A DNA stretch of 42,932 bases from a virus (taxonomy: Duplodnaviria; Caudoviricetes), in the IMG/VR virus record IMGVR_UViG_3300033076_001065, positions 1 through 42,932 of that record; one strand, 5' to 3'. Shown one piece after another: positions 1 to 4,708 of the stretch (its first letter is position 1; each line of letters opens with the position of its first letter). The notes beneath the pieces are model-generated. The model was not told the origin of the DNA. It was given only the letters and a program-made list of their open reading frames with translations, and did not search any database. The translations under genes and the position numbers were made by a program.

Positions 1-2
1 GG

Positions 3-245
3 CACCAGTGCTTCGTCGCACCATGCAACGCATGCGGGAAGGACTGCGAGCTTCACACGCTGAAGCCGCGCGCCATCTACGTGGGCGACCCGACCGCGCC
101 CGATGACCTCGGCATCTGCAAGGGCTGCCCGTGCTCCAACGGCATGTGCGACTCGTGCGGCGAGACCGAGGGCCACTGGCTCGGGTGTCCGCTCGTAGGC
201 CTCCCCGAGATGCCGCCGGAGCCGACGGTCAGGACCGTCCAGTGA
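3..245 (+). CDS. Cys-rich small protein (5' partial), paralogue of 38381..38656
   Basis: Frame HQCFVAPCNACGKDCELHTLKPRAIYVGDPTAPDDLGICKGCPCSNGMCDSCGETEGHWLGCPLVGLPEMPPEPTVRTVQ*; about 90% nt identity to the second copy. Confidence 0.8.
   Translation, partial: HQCFVAPCNACGKDCELHTLKPRAIYVGDPTAPDDLGICKGCPCSNGMCDSCGETEGHWLGCPLVGLPEMPPEPTVRTVQ
11..245 (+). repeat. Dispersed direct repeat, copy 1 (copy 2 at 38422..38656)
   Basis: Manual gapless alignment: 23 mismatches in 235 nt, mostly synonymous. Confidence 0.95.
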
Positions 246-424: not shown

Positions 425-519
425 CCGAAGCTCCCCGGGGGTCTCGATCCCCATAGCCACCCGAAGGCGGTCGTACGCGCTCTCGCGCCCGGTAACCCAT
501 CCGGTTCGGGGAGCCTCGG
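425..519 (-). ncRNA. tRNA-like structured RNA lacking an anticodon loop (8/4 acceptor/T-stem)
   Basis: Minus strand reads GCTCCCCG-aa-CCGG atgggtta CCGG-GCGC gaga GCGC-gtacga-CCGCC ttcg GGTGG-ctat-GGGG atcgaga CCCC-CGGGGAGC; the closing stem extends to 13 bp. Confidence 0.7.
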
Positions 520-603
520 TGGACGTGGTCGGAATCGAACCAACCCGGGAACCAAGCCGACCGGGTTACAGCCGGCCCCGCATCCATAGCGGTCTACACG
601 TCC
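520..603 (-). tRNA. tRNA-Tyr (GTA), class II, atypical D-arm linker, CCA not encoded
   Basis: Acceptor GGACGTG/CACGTCC plus A73, anticodon arm GCCGG-CTGTAAC-CCGGT, long variable arm, T arm GTTGG-TTCGATT-CCGAC. Confidence 0.85.
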
Positions 604-626
604 TCACGCGCGCGAAGCGCTTCCTC

Positions 627-655
627 AGAATATGTCTGCGGCGATCCGGCGTCAA
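627..655 (-). promoter_or_regulatory. sigma70-like promoter for the tRNA locus
   Basis: TTGACG-17 nt-TATTCT, ending 23 nt upstream of the tRNA 5' end. Confidence 0.75.
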
Positions 656-681
656 CGGACCGCCGGCTTGCTCTTTCACAT

Positions 682-788
682 GCTACGTTTCCACCACGAC
701 GAGCGTAGGCGCCGTAGCGCTCCGAAGTGGTGGGCGCAGCCCGGGGAGGACACCCCATCAATGCCCTGTTGCCACGGAGGGCTCCCCG
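682..788. other. Intergenic tandem stem-loops downstream of the endolysin
   Basis: Pairings 682-687/735-740, 691-697/727-733, 701-705/718-722 and 742-748/782-788. Confidence 0.45.
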
Positions 789-794
789 CGGCGT

Positions 795-2046: not shown

Positions 2047-2528
2047 TTGAGCCCCTTGCTGGCGAGCCACGTCGTGGCCGCGGTTCCGAGGACAGCGAGA
2101 ATCAGCTTGATGTGCGGGTTCGAGGCGACCTTGTCGAGGCGGGTCAGGATCGCGAGCTGCACCTCGTTCGAGGCGCTCAGGTCGACGACCTTCGCCTTGA
2201 CCGACGCAAGCTCTGCGGCCACCGCCTCCCTCGCCGCCCGCTCCTGGGCGAGCTGGGCGTCCTGCTCCGAGTCGTGGCTGGAGAGCTGCCGCACGCCGTT
2301 GCTCGTGCGTGTGCGTGACTCCTCCAACACACCCACACGCTGCTCGACGAGGCCGACGCGATCCTTCACGATCGTGACGTCGTTCGACACGAGCTGGATG
2401 TCCGCGCCCAGGGTGCGAAACCCGGCGTCCTGCGCTTCACGGAGCTGCTTGAGCATCTCCATGACGGGGTCGACGCGCGGGATCTCCTTCGTCGTGGGCT
2501 GATTCTCCGGGGGCTTCTCGTCGCTCAT
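2043..2528 (-). CDS. Coiled-coil protein with C-terminal TM helix (holin/XhlA-like candidate)
   Basis: MSDEKPPENQ...; heptad-rich body; C-terminal IKLILAVLGTAATTWLASK; GGAG RBS. Confidence 0.65.
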   Translation of the reverse strand: MSDEKPPENQPTTKEIPRVDPVMEMLKQLREAQDAGFRTLGADIQLVSNDVTIVKDRVGLVEQRVGVLEESRTRTSNGVRQLSSHDSEQDAQLAQERAAREAVAAELASVKAKVVDLSASNEVQLAILTRLDKVASNPHIKLILAVLGTAATTWLASKGLK

Positions 2529-2536
2529 GATGCTCC

Positions 2537-4294
2537 TCAGATTGCGTTGGCGCATACGCAGCGCCATCGCTGCGTCGTGGCGTCGTAGAAGAAGATCGCG
2601 ATGGCGTTCGTGGCAAACGCGACATCGGCGCCCGTCACGAACAGCAGCCGATTGGCCGCCGTCGATGTCGCGTCGTTGACGAGCGTTGTCACGCCGCCGG
2701 CGTTGATGATGATGAGCATCTCGCCGTCCTCGACGCCCGACGCGCTCACGCCTGTGATGCTCGGGGGCGTTGCGTTCGTGAGGCGGATGATGCGCGCGCC
2801 GCCGTGGGCGATGTTGTCGCCTCCGGTCGTGCCGCTGATGGTGAACACGCCGGAGAGGCGGAACGTGTTCGCCTCGACGCGCCCGCCGTCGATCTGCGGC
2901 GTCGTGAGGGTCGGAGACGTGGCGAACACTAGCGCCCCGCCCGTGCCCGTCTCGTCGGTGCACGCGCTCTTGATGTTCGCCGACGAGAACGTCCCGAGCA
3001 TCGTCGCGACGCCGGAGCCCAGCGCCGTGAGCCCGGTGCCGCCCTTGGAGTCCGGAAGCGCGGTCGTCAGAGCAGACGCGAGATTCGCCCCGCTCGGTGT
3101 CGCGAGCCACGTCGATACGCCCGTGCCCGGGGTGAGCGAGCCGAAGGACCCCGCGTTGTTCGTCTGGATGTCGCCCGACGAGCCCGCGGGGGTCGCTGAG
3201 ACCGTGGCCCATTCGGTGTCCGTCGCGCCCGCGTTGGTGCGTAGTACCTGGAGAGCCGAGCCGAGCGCCGTCTGATTCGTGCCGCCCTTCGACACCGGCA
3301 GCGCGGACGTGAGCGCGCTCGCGAGATTCGCGCCGCTGGGGGTCGTGAGGAACGTCTCGACGCCCGTTCCGAGCGCGAAGGTGGACCACGTGCCCGCGGC
3401 AATCTTCGGGACGCCCGTTGATGCGCTCGTGTCGATGCCCGTGCCTCCCTTCGCGGCGGTGAGTGCCGACGACAGCGCTGAGGCGAGGTTGGCTCCCGAT
3501 GGGGTGCCAAGCCATGTCGCCACGCCGCTGCCGAGCGAGGTCAGCCCGGTGCCGCCTTTGCTCGCCGGGAGCGCCGTCGTGAGGGCAGAGGCGAGGTTGG
3601 CGCCTGACGGCGTGCCGATCCACGTCTCCACCGCCGAGTCGAGCGTGACGGCGCTGGTCGACCCCGCGGCAATCTTGACGAGGCCCGAGTACGCGGAGAC
3701 GTCCGCCTCGAGCCCGCCGCGCTCGTGCACCAGCGTGCCGCTCGCGATGACGCTGGCCGCGAACGACGGCGCCGCGCTCGTCCAATCGGTGCCATCGCTC
3801 ACGCACAGGTTGCCCGACGTGCCGGGGGACAGGCCCGCGAACGAACCTCCGTCGTTGACCTGCAGGTCATGGTCGGAGCCGCCAGGGGTCCCGCCGCCAC
3901 CTCCGCTGTCGACGTAGACGCGATGCGTGAGCACGCCGAATGCGACATGCGCGCTTCCGTCCGTCTCGCAGTAGCCCACCACCTCGTCGCTGCTGCTCGG
4001 GGTCGCCACGCGTTCGAGCGCGCCCGCACTCGAGACTCGGATCGGCCCGGCGACACCAGAGCCGAGACCCGTCACGGTGGCCGGCACGGGGCCGACGACG
4101 ATCATGGTCACCGGGTTGCGCTGGTCGCCCGTTGTGAACGAGATGCCGTCAGGCCTGCCGTAGGTCGTGCGGTTTGCGGACGTCGCCACCACGTACCCGG
4201 CCGTGCCGCTCGACACGAGGCACTGTCCGATGGCAATGGACCCGGCAGCGCTGGAGATGGGCGCCGAGTAATTGACGGCAACGAGCGCGGTCAC
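2537..4294 (-). CDS. Tail fibre / receptor-binding protein
   Basis: 585 aa, G/S/T/A-rich, with four TPSGANLASAL...KGGT repeats and a DETGTGGALVFATSPTLTTP fibre-type motif. Confidence 0.75.
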   Translation of the reverse strand: MTALVAVNYSAPISSAAGSIAIGQCLVSSGTAGYVVATSANRTTYGRPDGISFTTGDQRNPVTMIVVGPVPATVTGLGSGVAGPIRVSSAGALERVATPSSSDEVVGYCETDGSAHVAFGVLTHRVYVDSGGGGGTPGGSDHDLQVNDGGSFAGLSPGTSGNLCVSDGTDWTSAAPSFAASVIASGTLVHERGGLEADVSAYSGLVKIAAGSTSAVTLDSAVETWIGTPSGANLASALTTALPASKGGTGLTSLGSGVATWLGTPSGANLASALSSALTAAKGGTGIDTSASTGVPKIAAGTWSTFALGTGVETFLTTPSGANLASALTSALPVSKGGTNQTALGSALQVLRTNAGATDTEWATVSATPAGSSGDIQTNNAGSFGSLTPGTGVSTWLATPSGANLASALTTALPDSKGGTGLTALGSGVATMLGTFSSANIKSACTDETGTGGALVFATSPTLTTPQIDGGRVEANTFRLSGVFTISGTTGGDNIAHGGARIIRLTNATPPSITGVSASGVEDGEMLIIINAGGVTTLVNDATSTAANRLLFVTGADVAFATNAIAIFFYDATTQRWRCVCANAI

Positions 4295-4297
4295 GCC

Positions 4298-4708
4298 TTA
4301 CTCCGAATCGCTCGCGGCCCACACGCGAAGGATGCCGCTCGTCGAGGCCGCCTTCACGATGAGGAACTTGTCGAGTGAGCGGTTGATGCGGAACTTGACC
4401 GGCGACTCTCCCGCCTCGAGCACCGCGCAATGCGTCGCCACGAACGCGGCATCGGCCGACCCTGCGGAGGTGGCCGCCGTGTCGTCGAGCGCGTTGTCGG
4501 TGGCGCTGTGGAAGTAGAAGAAGACGTCGTTCGTCTGCGCCTGCATCCACAGGTAGACCTCGGCGCGCTTCGCAAGGGACGCCTCGGGGGTGTACCCGCC
4601 GAGGGCGATCTTGCTGATGTTGTACGCCCTTGCGGTCGAGTCGACCGTGATGGCCAGGACGGCGCCCTTACGCGGCGGATCGCATTCCTCGAAACCGTAC
4701 GTGCCCAT
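4298..4708 (-). CDS. Hypothetical virion-module protein
   Basis: 136 aa, GGAGG RBS, in the operon. Confidence 0.7.
   Translation of the reverse strand: MGTYGFEECDPPRKGAVLAITVDSTARAYNISKIALGGYTPEASLAKRAEVYLWMQAQTNDVFFYFHSATDNALDDTAATSAGSADAAFVATHCAVLEAGESPVKFRINRSLDKFLIVKAASTSGILRVWAASDSE

Follow-up and report, generated by a model that had tools for sequence, protein, structure and literature searches.

Directly behind a tRNA-Tyr gene, a phage contig carries a short sequence predicted to fold like a tRNA with no anticodon loop, and the question that this locus raises is whether such an element is a working RNA, and of what kind, or the remains of one. The window analysed here is the whole of IMG/VR virus record IMGVR_UViG_3300033076_001065, a 42.9-kb phage contig (42,932 nt; Caudoviricetes) with an estimated completeness of 55% and a G+C content of 67.7%, in which we recognised genes for a terminase, a head-tail adaptor, a primase-helicase, a serine integrase and an endolysin. 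The RNA element lies between the minus-strand endolysin gene and small plus-strand ORFs, in the following arrangement.

426..514, minus strand: anticodon-less 8/4 tRNA-like RNA (predicted fold, match to a model of (8/4) tRNA-Ser, position-wise comparison)
515..519, minus strand: spacer CCGAG, 5 nt, both tRNA-Tyr trailer and element leader, predicted to pair with 429-425 (probability 0.99-1.0)
518..603, minus strand: class II tRNA-Tyr(GUA), called by ARAGORN
604..626, minus strand: conserved 23-nt discriminator and leader block before the RNA cargo, also present in the loci L171, L172 and L271
627..655, minus strand: sigma-70-like promoter (TTGACG, 17 nt, TATTCT), the sole site in 1-1500 (shuffle mean 0.0), pointing at tRNA-Tyr
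428..680, minus strand: the whole swappable RNA cassette of promoter, leader and cargo, 253 nt, absent in the locus L173
795..1553, minus strand: endolysin gene, upstream of the RNA cassette (weak match to PHROG 7 endolysin; homologues named GH24 lysozyme)

The endolysin gene served as bait for the collection of related loci, and its closest relatives (P0002-P0009, identities of 75-86%, with P0002 at 86%) came mostly from Logan and ENA. The names attached to homologues were scattered (Polyangiaceae, Solirubrobacterales, Gemmatimonadaceae and Microbacterium) and did not identify the host. Elsewhere in this part of the contig (window positions 1-245), most differences from related strains in sequencing run X1 fell on third codon positions of the ORF at 3-245, and one strain departed from the window sequence at 245; we read this as a coding ORF beside the margin of a variable region. 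A second conserved noncoding block, constant at its ends and variable between them, occupies 680-790 (minus strand) and recurs at L173:1454-1588 and at L178:2508-2590, the last immediately before the endolysin start codon; none of the three copies had an Rfam match.

The minimum-free-energy fold of positions 519-425 (minus strand) coincided with the centroid at -55.1 kcal/mol (z -3.74), none of 200 shuffles being as stable, and it was the cloverleaf that a first-pass annotation had described, with its 8-bp acceptor, 4-bp T stem, GG in the D loop and variable arm capped by cUUCGg. The acceptor stem (514-507/437-430) is Watson-Crick throughout and is joined by an AA linker to the D arm (504-489), which has a 4-bp stem with GG in the loop and a length that fits the 6+4+6 of the tRNA-Sec-like, long-stemmed D arm of allo-tRNAs, but in which four pairs form and pairs 5 and 6 are A.A and U.U. 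In the place of the anticodon arm stands a short arm (488-477, GCGC-GAGA-GCGC), followed by a 5-bp variable stem (470-457), a T arm (452-438; 4-bp stem, loop AUCGAGA) and a 3' end at U73 (position 429) with no encoded CCA. When a longer precursor (621 to 405) was folded, the extension, acceptor, D, variable and T helices formed with pair probabilities of 0.71-1.0. The short arm took two registers in this ensemble, each with a 4-nt loop: the GNRA tetraloop of the first-pass annotation held in the main register (69%), and a register with an AGAG loop took the other 31%. A 7-nt anticodon loop was not possible in the precursor fold, which excludes an intact anticodon in an alternative fold, and, lacking such a loop, the element is predicted to be unable to read codons.

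That annotation had also spoken of an element fused behind tRNA-Tyr, whose extended stem sequesters the CCG following A73 of the tRNA. The two are adjacent, 5 nt apart, and so are fused in the sense of neighbours in one predicted transcript. The 5-bp extension of the acceptor stem was predicted in the whole precursor with pair probabilities of 0.99-1.0, but the final CGG of the resulting 13-bp stem belongs to the flank and is present in the cassette-less relative L173, and some of the extension may thus be fortuitous.

A strict cloverleaf descriptor matched once in the genome against 0.055 matches per shuffled genome (10 of 200 shuffles had any match). ARAGORN, run for tRNA and tmRNA, made no call on 426-514 and called tRNA-Tyr alone; over the window, no Rfam family reached its gathering score, and neither RF00005 (canonical tRNA) nor RF01852 (tRNA-Sec) was called on the element. 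These were among the scans that the annotation had proposed as a check, and they assigned the element to no known family or tRNA. The only Rfam match touching it, to permuted tmRNA, reached 16.2 bits against a cut-off of 47 and was driven by the T arm of tRNA-Tyr; with no ARAGORN tmRNA call either, a tmRNA was rejected. A coding sequence was likewise rejected, as the cassette (428..680) had no codon periodicity and a single antisense tblastn match lay over the promoter only.

The exact T arm of the element, used as an IMG/VR search pattern, returned 50 loci, among them (8/4) tRNA-Ser genes in L002 and L025, and these led to the same (8/4) tRNA-Ser in phages of Caulobacter, the Roseobacter group, Xanthomonas, Stenotrophomonas and Rhodococcus. 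Most of these genes are unannotated in the GenBank phage records (L369-L377). The 8/4 fold is backed by covariation, with two-sided changes at 18 of 26 pairs in 16 family genes. We placed a set of 28 distinct members in the class of PMC5389517 by its text description and table rows rather than by identical records; its supplement gave 0 matches to the T-loop motif and three phage names.

A model built from the (8/4) tRNA-Ser genes without the element found the element as its top match in the window (37.8 bits, E 1e-6), ahead of tRNA-Tyr (34.3 bits) and the next match (12.7). Since family members score 66-96 bits and other tRNAs 16.8-47.1, the element falls within the range of other tRNAs and far below members, and the whole-model score alone is no proof of descent. 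A profile restricted to the D junction and T arm gave the element 37.2 bits, against 19-36.9 for 16 members scored by leave-one-out. Of 70 tRNAs called by ARAGORN, one tRNA-Val reached 27.8 bits and every other one not called Ser at most 18.7. As the T-arm motif of the element itself had been the seed for the family set, this test is partly circular. In the position-wise comparison with the 28 members, the short arm carries the family majority at 26, 29, 30, 36, 38-41 and 44 if positions 31-35 are taken as missing. The 12-bp branch split 8/4, the long variable arm and U73 (the last in 3 of 28 members) are present; the 7-nt loop with its anticodon is absent, and C2-G71 replaces the G2-C71 of all 28. 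Without the anticodon the element is built like an (8/4) tRNA-Ser and is not a member, and on these comparisons it is likely derived from a phage scaffold of that type. The earlier description of a non-decoding, tRNA-shaped RNA with an 8/4 branch is thus supported and given an origin.

No second copy of the element was found among the 50 loci of the exact T-arm pattern, among the matches listed for two looser IMG/VR patterns (at least 120 loci each, from 37 and 35 of 64 parts; for the second, the model was applied to 100 of the 120 listed loci and the descriptor to all 120) or among the 18 loci of a third. A GTDB pattern gave 45 loci, all chance matches or ordinary tRNA-Val; blastn against INPHARED and plasmids, the 97 endolysin loci with 32 related phage records, and an endolysin single-sequence scan of viral contigs gave no homologue either. 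With no homologue there is no covariation within the element's own family. The titles and abstract openings of the literature searched, which held few subscription papers, contained no description of an anticodon-less 8/4 phage tRNA.

The surroundings of the element were compared across the 97 loci with a related endolysin. In L173 (73% identity) the cassette is absent and the flanks at 681 and 427 meet directly, so that 680-428 behaves as an insertion-deletion unit. One edge of it, the left, is also the start of homology with L171 (77% identity), which shares 680-604, including the promoter (84% over 77 nt), and then carries a different structured RNA. L172 (73% identity) has 24 of 24 leader nucleotides identical and a more diverged promoter block, followed by a tRNA-like gene (L172:2308-2382) whose anticodon loop has 8 nt, whose T loop reads GUCGAGA and which ends in A-CCG. 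No such match came from the remaining 94 of the 97 loci. L271, whose kinship is not established, was picked up by a leader pattern and has this promoter and leader too; a leader search in the 32 related phage records matched only that of L271 and one site with three mismatches, at control level. The tRNA-Tyr of the window has an atypical D arm (a 4-nt acceptor-D linker), ends in A73 followed by CCG and lies below Rfam gathering scores, with tRNA-Sec as its best match (34.3 bits). No intrinsic terminator was found in 1-1500.

Several observations on these slots stand on their own. The L171 RNA (L171:836-1030), which follows the shared promoter and leader, is a multi-stem structure of no assigned kind, and pairing with the leader is predicted to close it; about 30 nt of it recur in L178 (about 2425-2455, minus strand), and neither had an Rfam match. 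In the L172 gene the CCG after the discriminator is likewise predicted to be trapped in a hairpin. The L271 leader (697-719, minus strand) precedes a different GC-rich stretch overlapping a small opposite-strand ORF, and L199 has a tmRNA gene (3974-4320, minus strand) near its related endolysin.

The letters of the element were also compared with those of the 28 decoding members. The first-pass annotation had taken the two stable tetraloops as an argument for a selected RNA, an argument that proved weak: positions 30/36/37/38 already spell GNRA in 24 of 28 members, so that the loop is largely a by-product of losing 31-35 and not an independent sign of selection, and cUUCGg caps the variable arm in 2 of 28. 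Pairing appears to be the better sign and, with the private letters given below, speaks against simple decay, as judged from the same comparison. Five of the eight acceptor pairs are changed on both sides relative to the commonest family pair, and all eight are Watson-Crick. In its shifted register the short arm pairs 4/4, as in none of the 28 members (best 3), although the native register also pairs 4/4; two letters belong to the element alone, G28, which 0 of 28 members have, and G37, where all 28 have A. N26 and the T stem are still 36 nt apart, as in 19 of 28 members, since the shortening of the arm is made up by a longer variable region; the linkers of the variable stem, 6 and 4 nt, are longer than the family's. 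An unsampled ancestor could already have carried the element's odd letters. With all functional readings taken together, we regard a selected non-decoding RNA as probable.

Abnormal tRNA-like genes also occur in related phages. Of 32 phage records searched for tRNAs, 15 related by terminase, 16 by endolysin and 1 sharing the leader, 9 gave matches. The resulting 15 full-length tRNA-like genes include the window, L172 and one match of model R1, and leave out six partial or weak RF00005 matches, five weak R1 matches and one unverified ARAGORN call in L378. Abnormal anticodon loops were present in 6 of the 15, a proportion inflated because the searches detect intact bodies only: the element (4-nt loop), L172 (8-nt), a gene of L265 (9-nt) and three long capped arms.

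L356:1499-1584, minus strand: long capped anticodon arm, labelled Trp by ARAGORN
L357:1501-1583, plus strand: long capped anticodon arm, labelled Cys
L265:5157-5238, plus strand: long capped anticodon arm, labelled Ala

Taken together, these three bodies contain a single non-standard pair. They are analogues of the element on a 7/5 body and come from phages only 41-46% identical in the endolysin. No tRNA directly adjoins those of L356 and L357, which therefore are not 3' processing signals for one. Four of the 15 genes are tRNA-Tyr(GUA). This tRNA recurs in related phages, with atypical D or T arms, at the following places.

Window 518-603: tRNA-Tyr(GUA)
L358:1500-1582: tRNA-Tyr(GUA)
L378:1501-1585: tRNA-Tyr(GUA)
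L354:1712-1797: tRNA-Tyr(GUA)

Gene finders miss the element, and the long-arm RNAs of its relatives are labelled ordinary Trp, Cys and Ala tRNAs.

The reading that we favour, tentatively and at somewhat less than an even chance, is that the element stays uncharged and serves as a decoy for those host proteins that read the shape of a tRNA, the most plausible targets being tRNA-cutting defence nucleases. In this model tRNA-Tyr and the element would be co-transcribed from the one sigma-70-like promoter, and RNase P would cut at 515/514 to free a tRNA shape that neither decodes nor, presumably, is charged. Its shape, selected after loss of the anticodon, would soak up the nuclease through the long variable arm and the elbow while tRNA-Tyr replaces the host tRNA that is cut. 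The family-matching D-junction and T-arm profile, the five two-sided acceptor changes with no pair lost and the 4/4 short arm are consistent with this, as are the element's own promoter in a swappable slot, the six abnormal loops and four tRNA-Tyr(GUA) among the 15 genes, and the stand-alone anticodon-less bodies of relatives. The element is moreover a class II shape adjoining tRNA-Tyr, whose variable loop Septu and retron-Eco7 cut; overexpressed phage tRNA-Tyr is described as partly sparing the host tRNA (PMC13096335). Against a decoy, anticodon changes abolished rescue in two systems, those of phage tRNA-Tyr against retron-Eco7 (PMC11555353) and of phage tRNA-Thr against OLD, the text on the latter judging competitive inhibition unlikely (PMC12445682). 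Also against it are the lack of homologues and hence of covariation, the whole-model score far below that of members together with the partly circular profile test, the mismatched outer two D pairs and long variable-stem linkers, and the inflation of the 6/15 count. The paired 5-nt leader is a further objection, since such a leader may hinder or slow RNase P.

If the element is selected, a tRNA body without anticodon or serine identity pair would point to a second, non-translational use of the tRNA shape, and T4 RNA C and D, like other RNAs of phage tRNA regions with no assigned role, would gain a small model open to testing; as a pseudogene or processing signal it would be a minor curiosity. 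The wider proposal, that in this group of phages tRNA genes built on different scaffolds have been converted time and again into anticodon-less, uncharged tRNA shapes, expressed in the present case from a swappable promoter slot as RNA-only inhibitors of tRNA-cleaving defence nucleases and acting by competition, not by decoding, we hold to be unlikely.

The strongest rival, although we think it unlikely, is a processing or end-protection element: the same cut at 515/514 would free a tRNA-Tyr that bears a 5-nt trailer, to be trimmed and given its CCA, and the released RNA would have no job. RNase P reads the elbow and the acceptor/T helix and ignores the anticodon, a serine identity pair and CCA, and the parts kept (elbow, 12-bp acceptor/T helix) and lost in the element divide along that line. 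Theta (HDV-like) ribozymes also trim phage tRNA trailers; the Rfam scan of the window gave no family at its gathering score. The lack of an intrinsic terminator in 1-1500 also suits a processing role, and a tRNA-like module of Mycobacterium smegmatis YrlA is cut by RNase P (PMC4201824). The fully paired leader speaks against it, as do the L172 gene, which sits behind the same leader and is followed only by a short hairpin (the contig ends 20 nt later), and the long-arm bodies of L356 and L357 with no adjacent tRNA.

Rather unlikely in our view is a young pseudogene, an (8/4) tRNA-Ser that lost five anticodon-arm bases in one slip and rides as a functionless passenger of the cassette. A single 5-nt loss would explain the arm, with the GNRA loop automatic in 24 of 28 members, and in 7 of 28 the stretch that was lost lies between CG repeats; the native register pairs 4/4, the element was a singleton in all searches, and inactive allo-tRNAs have been described (PMC5389517). 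Yet the acceptor identity pair and the invariant A37 have changed with no acceptor or T-stem pair lost, G28 and C42, each of which mends a mismatch of the shifted register, would have required a double flip (0 of 28) in the old one, and anticodon-less bodies recur in relatives.

A charged tRNA or synthetase ligand seems quite improbable. After CCA addition it would be serylated by way of its long variable arm and donate serine outside translation, or it would titrate SerRS or EF-Tu; the long variable arm and U73 fit, and SerRS ignores the anticodon (PMC5389517, PMC7609411). The element has no CCA, its 3' end is predicted to be paired, and the scans of 26 and 24 ORFs recognised no gene for a transferase. 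Moreover, G2-C71, which we take to be a SerRS determinant, is inverted in the element, and 0 of 28 members have pairs of its type at acceptor positions 5 and 6.

Finally, a chance fold in GC-rich DNA, an attachment-site remnant, coding sequence or an assembly artefact is very improbable: the genome is indeed 67.7% G+C and the region appears in only one sequencing run, but the folding z of -3.74, the model E of 1e-6 and the descriptor null of 0.055 oppose chance, the integrase gene lies 29 kb off and encodes a serine recombinase, and one contig spans the element without variants, although it is probably the source of the record and so not independent support.

How, then, does the putative decoy compare with known systems? 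With YrlA Y RNAs, to which the first-pass annotation had likened it, it shares a non-decoding body with D and T arms, and some YrlA are cut by RNase P; YrlA, however, has its T and D arms separated by an acceptor-like stem-loop (PMC4201824), whereas the order here is that found in a normal tRNA, with D, short arm, variable, T. The comparison fails on this topology, on the lack of a YrlA Rfam match at E up to 10 and on the missing partner gene, Ro60/TROVE giving 0 matches in a contig estimated to be 55% complete. T4 RNA C and D also have a tRNA-like fold. Known too as species 1 and 2, they are small noncoding RNAs of a phage tRNA region with no assigned role, and are longer, those of a T4-like phage measuring about 138 and 118 nt (PMC3014915, PMC12685909). 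The phage (INPHARED) blastn search with the element gave no T4 match.

Inactive allo-tRNAs in polycistrons of irregular tRNAs resemble it in their 8/4 type, their possible exclusion from translation and their polycistronic setting, but as described they keep a named anticodon, often have broken stems and lie near toxin-antitoxin genes (PMC5389517); the element is in a phage, has intact acceptor and T stems and has no anticodon loop. Similar in build are the phage (8/4) tRNA-Ser of the allo-tRNA group (PMC5389517), which share the 8/4 branch, AA at 8-9, a 16-nt D arm with GG, the long variable arm, U73, the 36 nt that separate N26 and the T stem (19 of 28) and the T loop AUCGAGA, the commonest in the set (10 of 28). 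From these the element differs in missing 31-35, in its flipped G2-C71 and changed A37, and in its longer variable-arm linkers, lack of CCA and paired leader. Similar in setting are the counter-defence phage tRNAs (T5/SP15 and T6 tRNA-Tyr; tRNA-Thr against OLD): whereas rescue by the SP15 and tRNA-Thr genes was lost on anticodon change and the element is predicted to be unable to decode, its cassette shares with them its own promoter and a tRNA-Tyr cargo.
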